A DNA stretch of 36,705 nt from a virus (lineage: Duplodnaviria; Heunggongvirae; Uroviricota; Caudoviricetes), in IMG/VR virus record IMGVR_UViG_2693429677_000015. The stretch is one strand, 5' to 3'. A program made the position numbers and the translations under genes. This document shows positions 12,677 through 32,808 of this stretch, in pieces. The notes under the pieces are model-generated. The model searched no databases and was not told where the DNA came from. It was given only the letters and a program-made list of their open reading frames with translations. The first letter of the stretch is position 1, and the number at the start of each line of letters is the position of its first letter.

Positions 12677-13019
12677 CAAGAGATACCGTAAAAGTCAGGG
12701 GTTCAAAAAAATCTTCGGTGTGGGCGCTAATCAGCAGGCGACCAGAAAGCGGGGTTTCTTCTGTCACACTGACCGTGCCGGGTGTGATGCGCTCATCATC
12801 TTCAATCAGCAGTGTCATCTGCATCATGATGTCGGCACGAAGTGTCGGGCTTTTTTCAGCCAGCAGGCGCGTTGCCAGTCCGCTCTCAATGATGGCGTGC
12901 TGGCAGTCCTGGGCAATACTTTCCCTGTTGTTGCATAACACCGGCTCACTGGCGCTGTTCAGCGTGAGATTGCGGCCGGTGATGAGCAAATCAATGTAAA
13001 GCGGTTTATCAGTATGCAT
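12669..13019 (-). CDS. Baseplate wedge protein (P2 gpW-like)
   Basis: ATG at 13019 (MHTDKPLY...) gives 116 aa; start lies 8 nt from the tape-measure stop; the longer track ORF would overlap the tape-measure gene. Confidence 0.6.
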   Translation of the reverse strand: MHTDKPLYIDLLITGRNLTLNSASEPVLCNNRESIAQDCQHAIIESGLATRLLAEKSPTLRADIMMQMTLLIEDDERITPGTVSVTEETPLSGRLLISAHTEDFFEPLTFTVSLDD

Positions 13020-15105
13020 GCAGCTCCATCCACTCGTTAAGACGGGCAGGGGATGGATCCTGCACATTGACGTTAACCACACGACGGGAGTTGTCGATGG
13101 TGGTCTGGTTTTCGCTGTTGTTCTGCATCTCTGCCGCAATGCCGCCCGGTCCCGCACTGATGGCTTTGCCGCCGGTTAATACGGAGCCTTCGCCACTTCC
13201 TGTGCTTTCCGGTGTGTCGATATTGACGCCGGGGATCATGTTGAGCTTGCCTACAATCCAGCCCCATGAATCACTGAAGGACTGTTTCACCAGTTCCCAG
13301 AGGTTACTGAAAATATTCAGGATGCCGCCCGCGAGATCCTTCAGGGCATCCAGTGGTGAATGCGTGGAAAAATAGTTAACCAGTGCATTCCAGCCGTCCT
13401 GGATTGTGTTCCATGCATTGCCGAACCATGCCCCCATACTGCCGACCATTTCAGCCACCCACTGAAAGGCGGCAGTATCCATCAGCGCGACTTTAATCTC
13501 ATCCCAGCGGGTGATCAGGAAATAAATGCCCACGCCCAGCGCAGCCAGTGCCAGGATGATTAATGTGATGGGGCTGAAAAGTAACTGTGTTGCAATTGCA
13601 GCTCCGCTGGTGACTGCGGTGTAGATTTTCATTGCTATGCCGGCGGCACCCAGCGCAACAGAATAAAGCCAGAGTCCGGCGCGCTGTAATTTCAGCAGCG
13701 CCAGCTGAATTTTTGCTTTGACGTTGTATGTTCCCATAGCAATGGACATGGCCAGATACAACGCCCTGACCGTTCGGGCAACTACAGTGAATGCCCACAT
13801 GGTAGCCGTCAGTGTGCGTTTCAGCAGAATGAGAATCTTCAGGGGTGCAACTGCTGCCAGCCAGACCAGCCGCAGTCCTGTCCAGACAAACTTCGCCACA
13901 CCCACCATAATGTTGACAACGGCACCCACTGCGGCAATGCCCAGCAGGGCGGCAGACAGTAAACCAATAGCCCGTGTGATATTGGGATACAGACGTAACC
14001 AGGCAACAAAGGATTTACCGCCTTCGTTGCTTTTCTGGATAAACGGGTACAGAACAGGCAGCAACTGCGTGCCGATTTCGATGCGAATGCCGTTAATAAT
14101 TGCGGCGGCCTGTTCCCATGGATCAGCCATGGCCTGCGCCATTTCGACAGCCTTATCCATACCTTTGATATTGCCCAGCGTGGCGATATTCTTTTCAAGT
14201 CCGCCAATGTCCGCATTGAGTAATTTAATCATGGCCACAGCTTCATCGGAGCCAAAGGCGCTTTTCAGCAAATCGGAATCAGCCACTTTTGACAGATCAC
14301 CAAATTTACCCCTGATAAGTTTCATGATCTCGACAACACTTTTCATCGTGCCGTCTTTATTCACGAAATTAAGCCCCAGCTTTTTCTGGGCGCTGCCTAC
14401 TGCGGCAAGAAATGCCTTGTATTTTGTCCCGGCCTCGCTGCCACTCATGGTGGCCTGTAGTTGTCCCAGCACGGCGAACTGTTCAGCCGCATCAATACCG
14501 GCCGCTTTTGCACTGGCACCCAGCGTGGTGAACGCTGCTGACATGTTATCGCCGGTTGTTTTAAACATTTGCACGGCGGTGGCGGTTTGCCCGGCGACCT
14601 GCTCCACCCATTTGCTTTTTCCCATGGCATCAGCCTGGTCTTTAAAGATGCCGTACATGGTGCCCATGTAGGCGGTAATGGTCTGGCTGCTGGATTTGGT
14701 TGCTGCTGCCACCGTTGCTGATGCGGTGGTGAAGCGCGACAGCTCATCGTCAGTTAACCCGGCAATGGCTGACTGGATGTCGTAAGAAGCACGCACAAAA
14801 TCCTGCGCAGCCCCGCCGTATTCCATAGTGAAATCAACGGCGGCGCGGCTGAGTTTACGCAATCCGGACTCTGCGACGCCCAGTGATTTCACCTCACCGA
14901 GCGCCCTGTCCATTTCAATGGCTGGCATCAGTGCCCCCTGAATGGCTGCACCCACTCCCCAGAGCGCAGCGCCTCCGGTAGCAATGTCCCGAAAGGCTCC
15001 CCGACTTGTTGCAGCAAATCCCTGAACCTGTCGCCCGGCTGCACGCAACGGCCTTGTCAGGCGGTCTGTCAGTTCAAGAAGTAATTCAAGGCGCTGTTGT
15101 GACAT
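13009..15105 (-). CDS. Tail tape measure protein
   Basis: 698 aa, Ala/Gly-rich helical N-terminal half, central hydrophobic segments, position after the tail chaperone; ATG overlaps the stop of the E' extension frame (TAATG). Confidence 0.85.
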   Translation of the reverse strand: MSQQRLELLLELTDRLTRPLRAAGRQVQGFAATSRGAFRDIATGGAALWGVGAAIQGALMPAIEMDRALGEVKSLGVAESGLRKLSRAAVDFTMEYGGAAQDFVRASYDIQSAIAGLTDDELSRFTTASATVAAATKSSSQTITAYMGTMYGIFKDQADAMGKSKWVEQVAGQTATAVQMFKTTGDNMSAAFTTLGASAKAAGIDAAEQFAVLGQLQATMSGSEAGTKYKAFLAAVGSAQKKLGLNFVNKDGTMKSVVEIMKLIRGKFGDLSKVADSDLLKSAFGSDEAVAMIKLLNADIGGLEKNIATLGNIKGMDKAVEMAQAMADPWEQAAAIINGIRIEIGTQLLPVLYPFIQKSNEGGKSFVAWLRLYPNITRAIGLLSAALLGIAAVGAVVNIMVGVAKFVWTGLRLVWLAAVAPLKILILLKRTLTATMWAFTVVARTVRALYLAMSIAMGTYNVKAKIQLALLKLQRAGLWLYSVALGAAGIAMKIYTAVTSGAAIATQLLFSPITLIILALAALGVGIYFLITRWDEIKVALMDTAAFQWVAEMVGSMGAWFGNAWNTIQDGWNALVNYFSTHSPLDALKDLAGGILNIFSNLWELVKQSFSDSWGWIVGKLNMIPGVNIDTPESTGSGEGSVLTGGKAISAGPGGIAAEMQNNSENQTTIDNSRRVVNVNVQDPSPARLNEWMELHAY

Positions 15106-15586
15106 TACGATCCCTTAAAAGCACGGATAATGCCGTTATTGACGGCGATGCTCATATTTTCCCAGTAGTGGTTATCCAGCCAGACGGCGGCAGCCAGTGA
15201 CTGCGGCGAGTCATCCTCGCCGGGCAGCCAGTGGCGGCGCAGGATCAGCATCCGGGTAAGGTCATTGCGATCAATGGCCCCCAGATGGCTTTTTATTTTT
15301 TTACGGTGATTTCCACTTCCGGCACAAACTCGTTATTCACGGCTGTTGCCAGGCTGGCCGGCATTCCTGGTTTTTCCAGCAACTGGTTAAGCAGATCGCG
15401 GTGCTCTTTAATCACGATACGGCGCAGGTAGTTTTTCAGCGGCGCGATTTTGTTATCCGGCATGAAGTCGTTCTGCAGGTCGTTGTAGGCTTTTACGGTC
15501 GGGATAAACGTCAGTTCATGCTCGCCGACCTGTAAAGTGATGGTGTTCTCTGCGGTAGTCTGGGTGTTTTTATCGTTCATCATCAT
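15105..15586 (-). CDS. Tail assembly chaperone E' (E extended by programmed -1 frameshift)
   Basis: -1 slip at A AAA AAA (15302..15296) opens a 63-codon stop-free frame (IKSHLGAIDRNDLTRMLILRRHWLPGEDDSPQSLAAAVWLDNHYWENMSIAVNNGIIRAFKGS) whose TAA overlaps the tape-measure ATG. Confidence 0.5.
15293..15586 (-). CDS. Tail assembly chaperone (P2 gpE-like)
   Basis: 97-aa ORF upstream of tape measure; ends ...GUA AAA AAA UAA with an A-AAA-AAA slippery heptamer. Confidence 0.6.
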   Translation of the reverse strand: MMMNDKNTQTTAENTITLQVGEHELTFIPTVKAYNDLQNDFMPDNKIAPLKNYLRRIVIKEHRDLLNQLLEKPGMPASLATAVNNEFVPEVEITVKK

Positions 15587-15650
15587 TTCCTTTTAAAGTC
15601 AAGAATAAGAGGGCTTAATAAGCCTGCAGGAAGGCTTATTAAGCGTAAAA

Positions 15651-15992
15651 TCAGCGCACGCCGTCGTGCTCAAGGCTGAAATGATTGCCATCCGGGCGTT
15701 TTTTAAAACGACCGCCCCATGCGCCACCAAGAGACTCCCAGTACTCGCCCAGCTCGCGGTAGGCCTCTGTGCGGGTCTGATATTCACCGTTAATAAACAG
15801 GTTAAAATCCACGGCCAGCCGCTGGCAGTGCAGGCTGTTGGCAATGCCGGATCCCTTTTGTGCGTTGAGTTTTGCCTGTTCTGGCGTGCGGTACGCCTCA
15901 CCGAACGTCAGGCCATAACCGCGCTGATGGGCAAACTCGATGAGTTTTCCGATCATGACGGTAAATTGTTGTTGCTTATCGGAGAGTTTCAT
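15651..15992 (-). CDS. Endolysin, peptidase M15 family (zinc D,D- or L-Ala-D-Glu peptidase fold)
   Basis: 113 aa with H-x6-D ... H-x2-H arrangement (HCQRLAVD ... NHFSLEH) typical of small M15 phage peptidases; immediately downstream of the holin-like gene. Confidence 0.65.
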   Translation of the reverse strand: MKLSDKQQQFTVMIGKLIEFAHQRGYGLTFGEAYRTPEQAKLNAQKGSGIANSLHCQRLAVDFNLFINGEYQTRTEAYRELGEYWESLGGAWGGRFKKRPDGNHFSLEHDGVR

Positions 15993-16101: not shown

Positions 16102-16398
16102 TTACTCCTCTTTGTTCTCTTTCTCGCCCAGCTTCCGGCGCATATGACGCAGGAAGATTTCCACAACCTGGTAACCGGCAACGCCCATTGCAGTGCCTGC
16201 GCCGGCAATGGCCAGTGGGTCAAGGTTCGGGTAACGAACCAGCAGGGCGGCGGCAGAAACACCCAGCGCGCTCCCCAGCAGGGTTCGACCCACAAACAAC
16301 CGCAACGTAATCGGCTCTGCGCCAGCCAGCACCCGACTTGCGGCAGCGATTCCGCCCAGAATGCCCAGGGTGATAATGGTGCGCTCATGCTCCTGCAT
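16102..16398 (-). CDS. Holin-like small membrane protein
   Basis: 98 aa, two or three predicted TM segments and a charged C-terminus (RRKLGEKENKEE); directly upstream of the endolysin. Confidence 0.55.
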   Translation of the reverse strand: MQEHERTIITLGILGGIAAASRVLAGAEPITLRLFVGRTLLGSALGVSAAALLVRYPNLDPLAIAGAGTAMGVAGYQVVEIFLRHMRRKLGEKENKEE

Positions 16399-16401
16399 GG
16401 T

Positions 16402-16857
16402 TCACCCCATCAGTCCGCGCACGTCGTTCTCTGAGAGAACGGGCACGCCGTTGATACGCACAAAGTCAGGGCTTGCCACCACGTACTTGATTTTGTGCGT
16501 GGTCAGATCTGCGCTCTCGGTGTCAATGCTTAACAGGCCGGAAAGCATCAGCTCGCAACCGAAGGCTTCGACGCGGATTTCTTCAGTGCCCGTGTTGGCG
16601 TAAAACACAAAATCCATTGGCGGCAGATCGCGCCACGATCCCGCCTGAGCAGCTACTTCCCCGAGCTGGTTAAAGCTGCGGGTACTCATTTCGATTTCAC
16701 CTTCGGCACTGACAGGTCCACGCAGTTTACCGTCAGGGATGCCACGGGTTTTGGCAACGGCGCTTTCATCGCTGATGTCCAGTGAGATGCTTTTCACATG
16801 GATATCCGTTCCACCGATAAAGGTGTCAAACGCCATGCCGTTAATGCGGGTCGTCAT
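16402..16857 (-). CDS. Tail tube protein (gpFII-like)
   Basis: 151 aa immediately downstream of, and overlapping, the sheath gene. Confidence 0.65.
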   Translation of the reverse strand: MTTRINGMAFDTFIGGTDIHVKSISLDISDESAVAKTRGIPDGKLRGPVSAEGEIEMSTRSFNQLGEVAAQAGSWRDLPPMDFVFYANTGTEEIRVEAFGCELMLSGLLSIDTESADLTTHKIKYVVASPDFVRINGVPVLSENDVRGLMG

Positions 16858-18002
16858 GCGTTTTCCTCCAGAGATTTATCCAGCTGAATGCCCACTTTGA
16901 TGGTTTTAGGGCAGGCGTAAGGGCGGACAACAATGCTGATGCTGACCGTCTTTTCGTCCTGCCAGGTGATAACCACGTCGCCTTTCTTGGGCGATTTCAC
17001 TTCGCCCGGAAACGTGATGCCGTTAATCTGCGTGGATTTCGCCATGGCACGCAGTGGGCGGGCAAACAGCGTTTCATGTGCGGCAATGCTGCCCGGCGTG
17101 CTGTTCAGCGAGCGATCTGCAATCTTGGGGATGGCCATCAGCCGCACGCGGCGCGCCACCTTATCAGCAATGCGGACATGCTCAATGACGTTGAAGTCCC
17201 CGCCTTCCACCTCAAGTGTTACACCGTCAGCCCAGTAAAGACCCTCATAGTCGGCATACCACATGGGCACGCTGTAGCGGGCGGTTGCCAGTGCCTGCAG
17301 GGTGTCGAGATCAATTGCCTGCCCTGCGCTGTCTTTCGGGCGCTCTGTGGTTTTCAGTGCGGACAGCGCCCCGGTTGCCACACGTGCCGGGCTGTCAGCA
17401 ATGGTGACGGCGCTGTTACACAGACGACCGGCAAGAACGCCCGGTTCAAATCCAAAAATCTCCGGAACCAGCATGACCTGCGGGGCTGCAATGCCTTTCT
17501 GTAGCGTGGTCAGCTCGGCAACGTATTCCGCCCAGGTTTTACTGTTGTCGTTGGCGGCGATAGTCAGGATGAACCAGATGCGGCGCTGATATTTATTGAT
17601 GATGGTCTGACGTAACGCCTGTATGGCGTTGATGTCATCCTTCGTGCTGACCGGTTCGGTGATCACCACTCCTTCAACTGAAACAGTTTCCTGAGCCGCC
17701 AGTATGGCGTTCTGCCATGCCTGGCAGGCTGGCGTCGCTTCTTTGCCCTTGCCGGCTTCCGGCAGAACGGCAACATAGAAAAAGGCATTCTGTCCGGCAT
17801 TGGTCAGTGCGGACTGAAGGAAGTTCTTCAGCGGGGTGGCTTTCGTTCCCAGTAGCTCGTCCAGATCACTGTTGGCATTAACCGGCAGAACCTTACCTTT
17901 GTTGTTTTGTGCATTGCCCACAAACAGCAGCGTATTTTCCACGCCGTCCGGTGAACTGCTGAATGTGTTGTACTGTTCAATCGTGACAGATGGCCATGTC
18001 AT
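16854..18002 (-). CDS. Contractile tail sheath protein (gpFI-like)
   Basis: ATG at 18002 preceded by AGGAGA; 382 aa; sheath-tube gene pair order. Confidence 0.8.
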   Translation of the reverse strand: MTWPSVTIEQYNTFSSSPDGVENTLLFVGNAQNNKGKVLPVNANSDLDELLGTKATPLKNFLQSALTNAGQNAFFYVAVLPEAGKGKEATPACQAWQNAILAAQETVSVEGVVITEPVSTKDDINAIQALRQTIINKYQRRIWFILTIAANDNSKTWAEYVAELTTLQKGIAAPQVMLVPEIFGFEPGVLAGRLCNSAVTIADSPARVATGALSALKTTERPKDSAGQAIDLDTLQALATARYSVPMWYADYEGLYWADGVTLEVEGGDFNVIEHVRIADKVARRVRLMAIPKIADRSLNSTPGSIAAHETLFARPLRAMAKSTQINGITFPGEVKSPKKGDVVITWQDEKTVSISIVVRPYACPKTIKVGIQLDKSLEENA

Positions 18003-18021
18003 GGTTTGTCTCCTGATTTTG

Positions 18022-18735
18022 TTATCTCGTGCCGCCGTAATGCAGGCTGCGCAGCTGCGCTTCCAGAATGCGGGCAAATTCAGCATCGCTGGCTCCCAGA
18101 AATGCGCGGGAGGGGATTTTGATTTCCCATACACGTTTTTTCTGCTCGCCTTTCAGAATGCTGATCACCAGTCCGGCCTGCGCCATACTCATGTTTTCCA
18201 TAATCCATTTCAGAGAAGGCTTTCTGCGTCCCCTGCGTCCGGTTTTTTTGCTGACTGCGCCGACGGGGGCGCGAAAGCCCAGAGAAAGAAGGCGTTCTGC
18301 CTGCCGTCGTGTGGCGGGACGGGTGCGCATGGCTTCGCTGTCCCGGCGTTTTGTGGCGCGGCCTTTGATGGTTGCGCCGTGCTGTTGCACCCACGCGACC
18401 GCCCCACCATGAGAGCCGGTGTTGTAATCCCCTTTTTTGAAGAAAAGGCGGACACTTTTCCCGCTGCCGTCAACCCTGATGGCCAGCAGTTTCGGCAGTC
18501 CCAGCAGCATTTTGTTTTTATACCTGCCGCTGGCTTTATCCGGTCTTTTTCGTGGTGCCCAGGCTGCCCCCTCCGGTGTTCGCTGTGCTTTCACATTGCG
18601 TCGTGCAGCCGGTATCAGGCCGTATTTCGCAATGCGAACCAGCAGCTTTCTGGCCTTTGCCGGCGGAAGTTCTGCCTCTCTGATGGCGCGACGAATCTGC
18701 CGGAGTTGTGACTCGTTAATCACTGGGCGCGTCAT
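18022..18735 (-). CDS. Basic virion morphogenesis / tail completion protein (gpS-like position)
   Basis: 237 aa, very Lys/Arg-rich; located between head completion and sheath genes; overlaps neighbour stops. Confidence 0.4.
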   Translation of the reverse strand: MTRPVINESQLRQIRRAIREAELPPAKARKLLVRIAKYGLIPAARRNVKAQRTPEGAAWAPRKRPDKASGRYKNKMLLGLPKLLAIRVDGSGKSVRLFFKKGDYNTGSHGGAVAWVQQHGATIKGRATKRRDSEAMRTRPATRRQAERLLSLGFRAPVGAVSKKTGRRGRRKPSLKWIMENMSMAQAGLVISILKGEQKKRVWEIKIPSRAFLGASDAEFARILEAQLRSLHYGGTR

Positions 18736-21563: not shown

Positions 21564-22454
21564 TTACACCAGGTTAAAAGTTTCGCCACCGGCCGGATTG
21601 TTGCCCGGCAGCTTCGTGGCGTCCTTGCTGAGTTCAGCAAATGCGGTTTCCATACTGGTAACCTTCTCCGCGATGGCGTTCACTGTGGAGAACAGCTTTT
21701 CGCCCTGCTCGGTGGTCAGCGTGAAGGTTTTGTCGTCCTTGTTGTTCTGTTCTGCGTTGTCCTGCCCCTGATCGCCGGTGCTGCCTTCCGGCTTGTTATC
21801 ACAGGTATCTTTCGGGGCATCCTTCGCGCTGAACTGCGCGACGTTTTCTTCCAGTTTGTCCAGGCGTTCGCCGGTTTTGTTGATAGCGTCCATCAACTGG
21901 CCGAACTGTTTTTCGTTCATATCGTTTTCCTGTTTGTTGCGTCCCACGGAGAAAAGGCCGGAAAAGAAACTGCGTTTGGCCTGCTCGTCGTCAGACTGCA
22001 GCGTGAAATTCAGTTCTTCTGCATTCCCCATGTGAATGGAATCTCCCTGCGAAAATTGCAGGCGGGTGGTGTTGATGCTGGCCGGTGTGTCAGTCACAGC
22101 GATACCGGATACAAAGAATTTGCCTGTTCCCAGGTAGTTTTCCTTTACCTCTATGGAGGTGAAAAGTTTTTGTCCAGCCTCGTTGGCTTCGGTCAGAAAG
22201 CGGTTGGGTATCAGGCGGGCTTTCAGCTGCACTTTATCACCGACTTTTTCCGCCTTCAGTGCATCAACAAGACCATAGTTATTGGTGAAAGCACGCCAGC
22301 CGGCGCTGGCATGAAACGGCCAGAGCATGGCGGTGTGTTCGTCCGGGTTATAAACCTCGGCGGCATCCGTCAGCCACTTTGGATCAATTTCCCGACCGTC
22401 GATGGTGGGGCCTGAAGTGGCTACGACCACCCAGTCTGTTTTCAGTTTCGACAT
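21564..22454 (-). CDS. Capsid scaffolding protein (P2 gpO-like)
   Basis: 296 aa; acidic Glu/Asp/Lys-rich C-terminal half; motifs ALKAEKVGD and GIAVTDTPAS resemble gpO; first gene of the leftward late operon. Confidence 0.8.
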   Translation of the reverse strand: MSKLKTDWVVVATSGPTIDGREIDPKWLTDAAEVYNPDEHTAMLWPFHASAGWRAFTNNYGLVDALKAEKVGDKVQLKARLIPNRFLTEANEAGQKLFTSIEVKENYLGTGKFFVSGIAVTDTPASINTTRLQFSQGDSIHMGNAEELNFTLQSDDEQAKRSFFSGLFSVGRNKQENDMNEKQFGQLMDAINKTGERLDKLEENVAQFSAKDAPKDTCDNKPEGSTGDQGQDNAEQNNKDDKTFTLTTEQGEKLFSTVNAIAEKVTSMETAFAELSKDATKLPGNNPAGGETFNLV

Positions 22455-30711: not shown

Positions 30712-31077
30712 TTACTTCGTCATGCCATTCAGGGTGTCGCGGCAGACGGCAGCCAGCCGCTGAATTTCCAGCACGGTGTCTTCTGTGTCGGCATGGCGAT
30801 GTGTGATGCGGATGCTGTCGGCAATCACATCGACGATTGCAGAGGATGGGCGCTGGTAAATGCCAATAACGGACGGGGTGCCACCTTCAATGCGGTAAAG
30901 CCTGTAATTTCCCTCGTGGCTGTCAATCATGTAGCGGCCATCAATAACAATCTTTCCGTCAGCGAGCTGCGGTACAGGCAGGGATTTCAGGTACATGTCA
31001 TAACGGTCACGCACGCGAACGGCAAGATCACGCTCTGTGTTGAGCAGGTATTCAAGAAAGTCGTTGGCGAGAATCAT
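30712..31077 (-). CDS. Hypothetical early protein
   Basis: 121-aa ORF directly upstream of gene A. Confidence 0.4.
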   Translation of the reverse strand: MILANDFLEYLLNTERDLAVRVRDRYDMYLKSLPVPQLADGKIVIDGRYMIDSHEGNYRLYRIEGGTPSVIGIYQRPSSAIVDVIADSIRITHRHADTEDTVLEIQRLAAVCRDTLNGMTK

Positions 31078-31380: not shown

Positions 31381-31700
31381 GGTGTGGCCTCTTTGGTTGT
31401 AAGTTTTGAAAACTCACCATCCAGAGGTTCCAAGCTCGGGGTGGTGAGACGTACAGGGTTGGAACTACCGGCAACCAAAGAACCCGGCCCGACCGAAGTC
31501 GGCCCCATACGCCTCACCATAATTCGTGTGCGAAAAAGACGTGGCGATACGGTACGCACAAAAAAACCGCTGGCGCGGTTGTGCGCTTTGGTTGTCAGCG
31601 GGGTTCCAATCCCGGCACCCGTTTTATGAGGCGCAGCGGAAATGTAACCTGACTGATTGCGGCATGGCAAGCGGTTTTTTTGTGTGTGCATAGTGGTTAC

Positions 31701-32252
31701 TCAGTCCGGTAGCAGTTCGCAAAGCACGGTGTCAGCGGCGGTATATCGTGCGTAAAGCCGGGCGGGAACCCATCTTTTAAGGGATATCCCGGCTGTGTCC
31801 CGGATGTGCTTCCTGATTTCGCTGAATGTCATCCCCTTCTCATCACGCAGTTCAGTTACCAACTCCACCAGGTGATCGCTGTATCTGGTTCTGTGGTGGA
31901 GTTCCCCGTATTTCCTGAACCGATACCCTCTTTTTCTCAGGTTCAGTTCCACCGTGGATGGCGAGCGCCCCAGCTCATTCGCGAGTTCCCGGATAGTTTT
32001 TGTGTGGCGATTCCTGATGAGCATGCTGAGTTCTTTTGTGCTCAGGTGGGGGCGTTTGGCGTGAATAACCCCCTGAGAGAGCAAAAGACGGATGCGACTT
32101 CGTATTGCTGACTCGGTTCTCTGAAGGTGCTTTGTCAGCTCCGGCGCTGTGTGGGAGTGGTATAACGTGGCTAAAAGTTCATCCTCCTGCTGTGTCCATG
32201 GTTTTACATGTGCCGGAGCCACACCAGGTGTACCCATTGGTTTGAGTTTCAT
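31701..32252 (-). CDS. Putative DNA-binding early protein with repeated helix-turn-helix-like segments
   Basis: 183 aa; three basic segments with HTH-like character (e.g. TIRELANELGRSPSTVELNLRKRG). Confidence 0.4.
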   Translation of the reverse strand: MKLKPMGTPGVAPAHVKPWTQQEDELLATLYHSHTAPELTKHLQRTESAIRSRIRLLLSQGVIHAKRPHLSTKELSMLIRNRHTKTIRELANELGRSPSTVELNLRKRGYRFRKYGELHHRTRYSDHLVELVTELRDEKGMTFSEIRKHIRDTAGISLKRWVPARLYARYTAADTVLCELLPD

Positions 32253-32266
32253 TGTGATTTACTCCC

Positions 32267-32566
32267 TTACTGGTTAAGGAAAAAATCGAAAACGTTGTCG
32301 ATGCGTTGCAGCAGCTCCTGCTGCATTGCTTCCGGCGTTTCTGATTCACCTGGTGACTCCAGCGTCGCGCAGAAATCCTTGATTTCATGATGGAGCGTCA
32401 GACGAATGGCAGGAGCCATGGTTCTGGCGTGCTCCAGCTCATCCAGCAGTGCCAGCACGGCAGATGGCGAGAGCATTGCGCGAAACGCCAGTAATTTTTG
32501 ATGCGTTGCCATTCGTTGCAGGTCAGTCGCCAGTTCGCGTAGTTCCTGGTGGTTGATGGTGCTCAT
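32267..32566 (-). CDS. Hypothetical early protein
   Basis: 99-aa ORF overlapping the upstream stop. Confidence 0.35.
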   Translation of the reverse strand: MSTINHQELRELATDLQRMATHQKLLAFRAMLSPSAVLALLDELEHARTMAPAIRLTLHHEIKDFCATLESPGESETPEAMQQELLQRIDNVFDFFLNQ

Positions 32567-32808
32567 GCTCTGGCTTCCTTCAGTAGCTGGTTAAACATGT
32601 TGGTAAGTGGATTGCCGCACCCGAACGGCATCGGGTTTATCTGGTAAGAAAAGCGACCACCTGTTTTGCGCTCTTTTCTTATGACTGAACCGCTGCGCCA
32701 GAGTCGGCGTAACTCCGCATTAATGGCTGTGGTTGGGGTATTCAGTGCTGCGGCGATTTCTCCACCGCTACAACCCGGATTGGCGGCGATGTAGTCCAGA
32801 ATGGTCAT
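32563..32808 (-). CDS. Small winged-helix-like DNA-binding protein
   Basis: 81 aa; GGEIAAALNTPTTAINAELRRLWRSGSV resembles an HTH recognition region. Confidence 0.4.
   Translation of the reverse strand: MTILDYIAANPGCSGGEIAAALNTPTTAINAELRRLWRSGSVIRKERKTGGRFSYQINPMPFGCGNPLTNMFNQLLKEARA

Follow-up and report, generated by a model that had tools for sequence, protein, structure and literature searches.

A run of seven adenines at the 3′ end of a tail assembly chaperone gene raises the question of whether an Escherichia coli prophage decodes this gene into two products, the chaperone itself and a longer fusion reached by a −1 shift of the reading frame. The prophage lies in the window analyzed here (the whole stretch of DNA, 36,705 nt) and belongs to the P2 family (Peduoviridae), combining P2-type head genes with an HP1-type tail module. 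Sheath and tube genes are located upstream of the chaperone gene and the tape-measure gene directly downstream of it. All genes of the locus are on the minus strand, in the order tail tube (16402..16857; Pfam Phage_HP1_Orf24, E = 1.1e-50), holin (16398..16102; Phage_holin_3_2, E = 3.8e-28), M15 endolysin (15992..15651; Peptidase_M15_4, E = 4.2e-11), chaperone, −1 extension, and tape measure (13009..15105, 698 aa; PhageMin_Tail, E = 7.5e-29; phrog_28, E = 1.3e-89). The lysis genes (holin and endolysin) likewise sit between tube and chaperone in HP1-type relatives, most of which differ from the prophage in carrying Rz-like spanin genes between endolysin and chaperone, where the prophage has none.

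Reading frames at the chaperone locus

The chaperone ORF occupies 15293..15586 on the minus strand (97 codons from the first ATG, 15586) and ends in GTA (15304-15302), AAA, AAA, and the zero-frame stop TAA (15295..15293). This stop abuts a slippery heptamer, A_AAA_AAA (15296..15302, minus strand), which, as read from the sequence, has the X_XXY_YYZ phase of the chaperone frame. The position (15302..15296) and phase that a sequence-only reading of the locus had given for the heptamer checked out on the minus strand. The same reading had described a 97-aa chaperone; its GTA AAA AAA TAA ending was correct, but the true start is probably the third ATG (15580), yielding 95 aa, since Shine-Dalgarno spacing and the RefSeq gene model (a 288-nt "putative phage tail assembly chaperone") both favor that codon. 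Predicted Shine-Dalgarno pairing was −5.6 kcal/mol for ATG 15580 versus +0.3 kcal/mol for ATG 15586.

The product of this ORF matched Pfam Phage_TAC_10 (PF10963) over residues 16-97 (E = 1.6e-26; 92.7 bits versus a cutoff of 25.7). Searched against the PDB, the chaperone profile gave a weak match (E = 0.039) to 3FGX, described as a tail assembly chaperone (PMC9603447), and a PDB sequence search with a shallower chaperone profile gave no match. The AlphaFold2 model of the chaperone (alignment of 9 close homologues; pLDDT 51, pTM 0.30) was of too low a quality to search for related folds, so that sequence family and gene position are the sole basis for assigning the upstream ORF product as a tail assembly chaperone.

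The −1 frame extension (15105..15296, minus strand) comprised exactly 63 codons when read from 15296 (15296..15108; IKSHLGAIDRNDLTRMLILRRHWLPGEDD...AFKGS), followed by a TAA (15107..15105) whose last A also opens the tape-measure ATG (15105..15103). The 63-codon open frame and the TAATG overlap proposed earlier were thereby confirmed at the level of coordinates. The tape-measure Shine-Dalgarno sequence, AAGGGA (15116..15111; pairing of −5.2 kcal/mol), is embedded in the last extension codons. The predicted frameshift product, complement(join(15296..15580, 15105..15296)), would be a chaperone-DUF6890 fusion of 158 aa (160 aa when counted from ATG 15586). Its junction, constructed from the sequence, reads ...EITVKK followed by IKSHLGAIDR... 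and lies in the region ...ITVKKIKSHLGAID..., with SHLGAIDR upstream of Met16 of the extension (ATG 15251). The extension matched Pfam DUF6890 (PF21830) over its residues 19-62 (E = 8e-24; 83.6 bits versus a cutoff of 23.6) and also phrog_7050 (E = 8e-29).

In random sequence, a 63-codon open frame has a chance of roughly 5%, (61/64)^63, and a scan of the window found that a heptamer with a long −1 ORF was not rare among spurious, mechanically called ORFs, so that the observation in a single sequence is only suggestive. An estimate of chance within the window, derived from the mechanical ORFs, was dropped because spurious ORFs overlap real genes.

Conservation of the heptamer and the −1 frame

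The site was compared across 74 distinct related contexts, taken from HP1, K139, phiO18P, ESSI-2, Edwardsiella, and IMG/VR contigs, with identity down to about 35%. NNA_AAA_AAN was found in phase and in the same alignment column in 74/74 contexts, and an open, conserved −1 frame (DUF6890) lay 3′ of the heptamer in every one of them. Both results strongly support the programmed −1 frameshift put forward in the sequence-only reading, which had counted non-conservation of the extension in related prophages, along with absence of an E′ product, as evidence against it. The heptamer was AAAAAAA plus stop in 24 contexts, AAAAAAC plus stop in 48, and AAAAAAG with a stop 7 codons later in the remaining 2; these last two, Pseudomonas phi3 and PfPro, form the only lineage with A_AAA_AAG, and the stop directly abutted the heptamer in all 72 distinct A_AAA_AAA or A_AAA_AAC contexts. 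The codon before the A's varied (GTA, CTA, GCA, ATA, or TTA) yet ended in A in 74/74, the first A of the heptamer being retained although its codon specifies V, L, A, or I.

Extension length in the relatives was 60-64 codons. In 19 lineages, spanning Escherichia, Edwardsiella, Yersinia, Salmonella, Cronobacter, Haemophilus, Pasteurella, Vibrio, Aeromonas, Pseudomonas, Pseudoalteromonas, and Salinivibrio, the junction fell in an identical gap-free column (fusion identity, 34-82%), and the reconstructed fusions matched both Phage_TAC_10 and DUF6890 in 19/19 cases. A tblastn search with the fusion recovered both halves in 76 phage records, side by side but each in its own frame. The two frames overlap by as little as 10 nt in Yersinia phage vB_YenM_324 and by 16 nt in F108, SI7, and SMHB1, which confines the shift to the heptamer. 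The gap between extension and tape-measure gene ranged from −1 to +27 nt in relatives; the TAATG overlap is not a conserved feature.

The odds for a single sequence, together with the frequency of heptamers with long −1 ORFs among the mechanical ORFs of the window, would suit an absence of functional recoding, the −1 frame being a chance occurrence or the decaying remnant of a defective prophage. Against this stand the match of the extension to a curated family, its retention in at least 557 IMG/VR loci and in functional, plaque-forming phages, e.g., HP1, K139, and phiO18P, and the invariance of site, phase, and extension length. The comparative data effectively refute a chance remnant, to which we assign a negligible probability. 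It is the DUF6890 match combined with a heptamer, phase, and layout kept in all contexts that takes the predicted frameshift beyond chance.

Initiation signals of the DUF6890 extension

In all the E. coli genomes listed as matches, RefSeq/PGAP has a gene of its own for a "DUF6890 family protein," and a small ORF is annotated at this place in several phages (phiO18P gp37, F108 Orf32, phi3 gp26, SI7 gp15, and yong1 gp39). The Pfam DUF6890 model, 44 residues long, begins after the Met encoded at ATG 15251. DUF6890 might on these grounds be an independent gene, as in the RefSeq model, encoding a 48-aa protein from ATG 15251 and lying after the A7 run by coincidence. That ATG, however, has no Shine-Dalgarno sequence (+0.7 kcal/mol, versus −5.2 to −8.5 kcal/mol at neighboring genes) and sits within the 3′ arm of the predicted hairpin described below. 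Annotated starts differ in position between phages, no conserved start codon for the extension was found in the 19 lineages, and 5 of these have no ATG, GTG, or TTG at all within the first 26 extension codons. Moreover, alignment of the extension with the 18 other lineages contained no gaps from the junction on, and residue conservation (an x-R-V-x-A-I-E-x-N motif) continued ungapped past the Met at 15251 back to the heptamer. An independent gene would also leave the in-phase NNA_AAA_AAN of all 74 contexts unexplained, and we consider it very unlikely.

DUF6890 representatives (n = 43, from 1.84 billion proteins) were all 28-67 aa in length with ragged N termini. No natural in-frame chaperone-DUF6890 fusions were found among 43 + 11 + 17 homologues, which fits a need for two products at a set ratio. 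The sole protein with both domains, P0005 (Salmonella), was rejected as a natural fusion and attributed to a deletion between two CCTGCGCCG repeats.

RNA structure downstream of the heptamer

An RNA hairpin was predicted at 15247..15290 (minus strand), separated from the 3′ end of the heptamer by a spacer of 5 nt (UAAAA) and consisting of an outer stem and an inner CAUUG-AUCG-CAAUG stem-loop. Its minimum free energy was −19.5 kcal/mol (z = −1.99 versus dinucleotide shuffles, of which 9/200 were at least as stable, a moderate significance); compared to 300 synonymous recodings, z for the hairpin in the window was −3.5, and 0/300 folded as well. The 59 nt 3′ of the heptamer were more stable than synonymous recodings in 17/19 lineages, with a mean z of −1.99 versus −0.36 ± 1.04 for control segments from the same loci (n = 190), a difference whose significance is overstated by a pooled Stouffer Z because the 19 lineages are not phylogenetically independent. 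RNAalifold detected essentially no shared RNA structure in 8 enterobacterial sequences (−1.8 kcal/mol), and counting of hairpin pairs in 6 close relatives gave 85% pairing and only one compensatory change, with no demonstrable covariation. The hairpins seem to lie in different registers between lineages, so that support for structure comes from stability relative to synonymous recodings. No Rfam family was found at the frameshift site, and no conserved Shine-Dalgarno-like element upstream of the heptamer was evident by eye in the upstream sequences of relatives.

Phase and structure also bear on whether the same fusion might be made mainly by transcriptional slippage, with RNA polymerase converting A7 into A8 and ordinary translation following (...VKKIKSH...). 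An A8 mRNA would encode an identical fusion, programmed transcriptional realignment is known at poly-A runs, and the frameshift efficiency of cassettes climbed with A-run length (PMC3711429). Realignment has been described, however, for runs of more than seven A's (PMC3711429), whereas the run here is exactly 7, and 50/74 contexts have no more than six (AAAAAAC or AAAAAAG). The length of the A run did not vary among 16 distinct close relatives. What is conserved is the X_XXY_YYZ phase, including the wobble A of the variable codon, and not run length, and such phase together with a hairpin at 5-nt spacing is a feature of ribosomal and not of polymerase slippage. We therefore regard polymerase slippage as an unlikely main source of the fusion; in the A7 variant, it may contribute to a minor extent.

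Comparison with known frameshift systems

The frameshift at G/GT of phage lambda was reportedly described by Levin et al. in 1993 and by Xu, Hendrix, and Duda in 2004, 2013, and 2014. As in lambda, two overlapping ORFs lie directly upstream of the tape-measure gene, the downstream ORF lacks initiation signals of its own, and the layout is retained where sequence conservation has been lost. The ORF layout, the in-phase heptamer, the absence of downstream initiation signals, and the upstream chaperone would place the locus among those of the G/GT type. The two systems differ in that lambda is a siphovirus whereas the prophage tail is contractile, and sequence similarity between them is absent. 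The lambda heptamer is G_GGA_AAG, compared to A_AAA_AAA in the prophage, where, in addition, the heptamer runs directly into the zero-frame stop, a hairpin is predicted after a 5-nt spacer, and the holin and endolysin genes intervene between tube and chaperone. The lambda G/GT mechanism has been described with a ratio of 30:1, and its products are absent from mature virions (PMC5009743), so that virion mass spectrometry would be uninformative if the prophage is lambda-like.

The sequence-only reading had likened the locus to both G/GT and P2 E/E′; the layout indeed matches, but the proteins are not members of the P2 E/E′ family as judged by Pfam and hhalign (<1%). The P2 E/E+E′ frameshift was reportedly described by Christie et al. 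in 2002. P2 (NC_001895) belongs to the same virus family, Peduoviridae, and likewise has a −1 frameshift close to the end of a chaperone gene of ~90 aa and an extension (57 aa, versus 63 aa in the prophage) that ends at or over the start of the tape-measure gene, T. The P2 proteins belong, however, to Phage_TAC_7 (PF10109) and Phage_P2_GpE (PF06528), and those of the prophage belong to Phage_TAC_10 (PF10963) and DUF6890 (PF21830); P2 E+E′ matched the former pair and the 19 fusions only the latter, even at E ≤ 10. Direct comparison of prophage and P2 gave no similarity, either by BLASTP (E = 0.27) or by hhalign (probabilities of 0.7%, 0.1%, and 0.2%). An "HW.P.E" motif shared in BLASTP was considered as a sign of E/E′ homology and rejected after profiles built from alignments of 19 DUF6890 and 10 P2 E′ sequences were compared with each other (probability of <1%). 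On these comparisons, naming the prophage proteins "E" and "E-prime" is analogy, not homology. The P2 site is T_TTT_TTG (GGT TTT TTG) with a stop 6 codons later, compared to GTA AAA AAA here, and no downstream structure has been reported for it (PMC3091744). P2-type fusions are routinely annotated in databases, whereas the prophage-type fusion was never annotated in the records inspected.

HP1 orf26, K139 orf30, phiO18P gp36-37, and F108 Orf31-32 are true homologues (35-49% identity). They share with the prophage the Pfam pair, the heptamer column, the extension length, and the order tube, lysis genes, chaperone, and tape measure; HP1-type relatives mostly have A_AAA_AAC, whereas the prophage has A_AAA_AAA.

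In E. coli dnaX, the stem-loop lies a few nucleotides from the heptamer. Like the prophage site, dnaX (gamma/tau) has a heptamer of lysine codons (A_AAA_AAG), read by the single E. coli tRNA-Lys, and a stimulatory downstream stem-loop (PMC5009743). It differs in its far shiftier AAG ending, an upstream Shine-Dalgarno-like stimulator, and an efficiency of about 50%, and its shifted product is the shorter one, whereas that of the prophage would be the longer.

Proposed mechanism

In our assessment, it is highly probable that ribosomes translating the tail assembly chaperone gene of the prophage undergo a programmed −1 frameshift, and this reading is strongly supported by the conserved site, phase, and extension, the absence of initiation signals for a separate gene, and the excess local RNA stability. 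Most ribosomes would stop at the UAA (15295..15293) and release the 95-aa chaperone. A minority would slip one base back, either with two tRNA-Lys on the AAA AAA of 15302..15296 or once the stop codon has entered the A site and the last tRNA-Lys occupies the P site; in the −1 frame, pairing at both AAA codons would again be perfect. The slip would probably be aided by the slow-to-decode stop 3′ of the heptamer and by the hairpin, roles that we infer for both elements. Shifted ribosomes would then read AUA AAA AGC... for 63 further codons and terminate on the tape-measure start codon, producing the 158-aa fusion with the whole chaperone at the N terminus and DUF6890 at the C terminus. If the two products act as G and GT do in lambda, the chaperone part of each would coat the tape-measure protein, and the rare DUF6890 part would recruit tail tube protein, which would polymerize around the tape measure; purely on this analogy, DUF6890 is presumed to be a tube-recruiting domain, with the tail tube protein (HP1 Orf24 family) as its presumed partner.

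Frameshifting of about 10% was measured for a cassette with seven A's (A_AAA_AAA), and of 6-7% for HK97-type chaperone cassettes (PMC3711429). E. coli ribosomes shift much less readily on A_AAA_AAA and A_AAA_AAC than on A_AAA_AAG (PMC5009743), and efficiency at the prophage site may therefore be low. The fusion is very probably produced, in an amount of probably a few percent. Published experimental evidence of the fused product in Phage_TAC_10/DUF6890 phages, this prophage included, was not found in a literature search. Since the weak heptamers all abut a stop and the A_AAA_AAG lineage has its stop 7 codons on, we tentatively raise the idea, which we think rather doubtful as yet, that frameshifting in this clade is termination coupled (a "shifty stop"), with the slip taking place while the stop codon is in the A site.

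Annotation and implications

Frameshifting in tail assembly chaperone genes is a well-known kind of feature; the site of this clade is without annotation in RefSeq and in 14 phage records. The long product was missing from the inspected RefSeq E. coli record, and the listed matching genomes bear the same feature names. The frameshift was annotated in 0/14 GenBank/RefSeq phage records inspected (HP1, K139, phiO18P, and ESSI-2 groups), and in inspected records the extension was either passed over, leaving an unannotated gap, or given an arbitrary start and listed as a hypothetical or DUF6890 protein in its own right. Xu et al. in 2004 or Christie et al. in 2002 may already list HP1 or K139; a literature search on frameshifting in HP1, K139, or DUF6890/Phage_TAC_10, whose range did not extend to these two papers, returned nothing relevant.

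As a further case of one of the best-known phage recoding events, the locus changes no concept, and its value lies in annotation: as an obligatory −1 extension of Phage_TAC_10, DUF6890 gains a probable function, and at least several hundred genomes of phages and prophages would each gain an essential tail gene product. The natural series A_AAA_AAA, A_AAA_AAC, and A_AAA_AAG, with or without an adjacent stop, is suited to the study of how weak heptamers are boosted in bacteria. Should the shifty-stop idea hold, release-factor competition and the downstream hairpin would govern how much short chaperone is made relative to long, making the stoichiometry of tail assembly sensitive to host termination efficiency. 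If the frameshift reading is true, DUF6890 would add a new sequence family to the tube-recruiting, "T-like" domains, one that occurs solely as an extension reached by frameshifting.

The frameshift site in the window and its prophage setting

Reading of the minus strand confirmed all coordinates that the sequence-only reading had assigned to a programmed −1 frameshift from a tail chaperone into an extension ending on the tape-measure start. The chaperone ORF (97 codons, ATG 15586 to TAA 15295..15293, minus strand) has the 3' end GAA ATC ACC GTA AAA AAA TAA, in which the slippery heptamer of seven A's (15302..15296, minus strand) lies in phase as X_XXY_YYZ. The −1 frame (15296 to TAA 15107..15105, minus strand) was open for exactly 63 codons (IKSHLGAIDRNDLTRMLILRRHWLPGEDDSPQSLAAAVWLDNHYWENMSIAVNNGIIRAFKGS), and the final A of its TAA is indeed base 1 of the tape-measure ATG (TAATG). 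The 97-aa chaperone stands as an ORF from ATG 15586, but the chaperone product probably has 95 aa and the fusion 158 aa, because Shine-Dalgarno pairing (−5.6 kcal/mol at the third ATG, 15580, versus +0.3 at ATG 15586) and the RefSeq gene model, which also begins the chaperone there, favor ATG 15580.

The zero-frame product matched Pfam Phage_TAC_10 (E = 1.6e-26) and is called "putative phage tail assembly chaperone" in RefSeq; the extension alone matched Pfam DUF6890 (E = 8e-24) and phrog_7050. RefSeq has a separate 48-aa "DUF6890 family protein" from ATG 15251, and the slippage join is absent from its annotation of this locus. The tape-measure gene (15105..13009, minus strand) encodes 698 aa (PhageMin_Tail, phrog_28), and the upstream genes encode an M15 endolysin, a holin, an HP1-Orf24-type tail tube, and a DUF2586-type sheath. 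This Escherichia coli prophage, whose head, terminase, and ogr genes are of P2 type and whose tail is of HP1 type, was present in 42 of 5,426 complete genomes.

Several other features of the prophage were observed. The endolysin-chaperone gap, in which most HP1-type relatives carry Rz-like or O-spanin genes, is just 64 nt (15587-15650, minus strand), and no spanin candidate was identified in it. The sheath ORF (16854-18134, minus strand) was called mechanically as 426 aa from a GTG, versus 382 aa from the later RefSeq DUF2586 start; its Pfam match starts at residue 47, and translation probably does not include the long N-terminal extension. Rfam matches over the gathering score were found for a C4 antisense RNA (31437-31524, minus strand; 84 bits) and, adjoining it near one prophage end, the Hfq-binding sRNA isrK (31560-31634, minus strand; 67 bits), a pair resembling, within a P2-family prophage, a C4 immunity element of the P1/P7 kind. 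The E. coli 700481 copy of the prophage (L001), otherwise 99% identical, carries an IS66-family element (tnpA/tnpB/tnpC; L001 9183-11887, at about window 21805-21814) between the capsid scaffold and major capsid genes that is absent from the window. Also annotated in L001, near the prophage end next to host raiA, are a Hok/Gef family toxin gene (30890-31030) and a pair resembling Mu com/mom (31717-32665), with a Com-family regulator and, after it, a DNA methyltransferase.

Conservation of the heptamer and the −1 frame

The extension was conserved in related prophages and phages, with the in-phase heptamer at one alignment column. All close relatives, drawn from GTDB genomes and IMG/VR and with chaperone identities as low as 64% (Edwardsiella), kept GTA AAA AAA TAA/TAG and an open −1 frame of 62 to 64 codons. 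In tblastn with the hypothetical fusion as query, its halves matched as neighboring pieces in different frames in 76 of 50,697 phage records, spanning the HP1/HP2, K139/Kappa, phiO18P, ESSI-2, F108, phi3, SI7, and vB_YenM_324 groups and many Vibrio phages. In each of the 14 of these records inspected, NNA AAA AAN ended the chaperone domain; the homologous −1 frame after it stayed open for 60 to 64 codons and ended 1 to 27 nt before the tape-measure start. Reconstructed fusions from 19 lineages (34 to 82% identity) all matched both Pfam families and aligned without gaps from well upstream of the junction, which fell in a single column, to the C terminus.

A wider IMG/VR scan found the extension encoded at at least 557 loci; among the 80 loci returned, all 78 that were parseable had the in-phase heptamer. 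The pooled set comprised 74 distinct contexts (63 distinct extension proteins): 48 with A_AAA_AAC and a stop, 24 with A_AAA_AAA and a stop, and 2 with A_AAA_AAG and a stop 7 codons later. Across these contexts the first A lies in GTA, CTA, GCA, ATA, or TTA; the wobble A is constant while the encoded residue changes, which shows selection on nucleotide sequence, not protein. Both frames are open together over just 10 nt in vB_YenM_324 and 16 nt in F108, SI7, and SMHB1, so the frame change must occur on the heptamer.

The rival reading of DUF6890 as a separate gene

That DUF6890 is an independent small gene starting at ATG 15251, as in RefSeq, is very improbable. This ATG lacks a Shine-Dalgarno sequence (+0.7 kcal/mol; chaperone, tape-measure, holin, and endolysin starts, −5.2 to −8.5 kcal/mol) and is buried in the 3' arm of the hairpin predicted past the heptamer. 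Five of the 19 lineages (E. ictaluri, vB_YenM_324, ESSI-2, SMHB1, and P05B) have no ATG, GTG, or TTG in extension codons 1 to 26, ahead of the conserved LRRHYLP core; conservation (x-R-V-x-A-I-E-x-N) reaches upstream past Met16 (ATG 15251) as far as the junction, and the small-ORF starts chosen by phage annotators vary between records.

All 43 DUF6890 matches in a set of 1.84 billion representative proteins were 28 to 67 aa long with ragged N termini, and none was a natural chaperone-DUF6890 fusion, which fits a need for both products at a fixed ratio. The sole two-domain protein found (P0005, Salmonella Montevideo, 96 aa) carries the DUF6890 core directly after the chaperone's N-terminal half. 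It corresponds to an exact in-frame deletion between copies of a 9-bp direct repeat, CCTGCGCCG, which occurs in the window once in the chaperone gene (15428-15420, minus strand) and once in the extension (15243-15235, minus strand), and is probably a defective prophage allele.

Mechanism of the frame change

With the single tRNA-Lys of E. coli, both tRNAs on A_AAA_AAA would re-pair perfectly in the −1 frame. A_AAA_AAA and A_AAA_AAC are far less shifty than A_AAA_AAG in E. coli (PMC5009743). The reported frameshifting of a 7-A cassette (~10%) and of HK97-type chaperone cassettes (6 to 7%) (PMC3711429) is comparable in magnitude to the 30:1 G:GT ratio of lambda (PMC5009743). In the 74 contexts, a stop codon always abutted the weak heptamers and was displaced from the strong one, a pattern that suggests "shifty stop" stimulation, on the basis of a single evolutionary event. 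An identical protein would result from transcriptional slippage on the A run, but that process is described for runs longer than 7 (PMC3711429), and two-thirds of the relatives have just six A's at this in-phase position. Slippage is thus improbable as the main route, and these data argue for ribosomal shifting as that route, with a small transcriptional contribution possible in the A7 variant of the window.

A hairpin of −19.5 kcal/mol was predicted at 15290..15247 (minus strand), beginning 5 nt past the heptamer (z = −1.99 versus dinucleotide shuffles). In 300 synonymous recodings that preserved the extension amino acids and the codon usage of the locus, stability averaged −9.9 ± 2.7 kcal/mol (z = −3.5), and none was equally stable; 190 control segments from the same loci had a mean z of −0.36 (standard deviation, 1.04), with 1% reaching −3.5. 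Of the 19 lineages, which are not independent, 17 exceeded their recodings in stability (mean z, −1.99). The hairpins lie in differing registers, no consensus structure was found across the lineages compared, and in 6 close relatives 85% of the pairs of the window hairpin could form, with one compensatory change; a hairpin in the window is therefore probable, not proven.

Relation to lambda and P2

The comparison with lambda G/GT and P2 E/E+E' held for the arrangement, which works in the same way; from the lambda model (PMC5009743) we infer that the chaperone domain would bind the tape measure and the DUF6890 domain would recruit the tube protein. Kinship with the P2 E/E' families did not hold (BLASTP E = 0.27; hhalign probability, <1%), and hmmscan at E ≤ 10 gave no link between them and the window proteins. 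P2 E+E' combines Phage_TAC_7 and Phage_P2_GpE at T_TTT_TTG (reconstructed from NC_001895), whereas the window combines Phage_TAC_10 and DUF6890 at A_AAA_AAA. A 142-aa protein representing the P2-type fusion is annotated widely; annotation of the Phage_TAC_10/DUF6890 fusion was not found in any record inspected. We found no mention of DUF6890 or of frameshifting in this clade in the literature searched; the key 2002 and 2004 papers (Christie et al.; Xu et al.) may already list HP1-type phages.

The finding is real and its interpretation as a programmed −1 frameshift essentially right: the site is one more case, new or at least not annotated, of a very well known recoding. Its value is chiefly for annotation, in that HP1-type chaperones have DUF6890 as their frameshift extension; the lysine-codon heptamers of the clade also form a natural series for mechanistic work.
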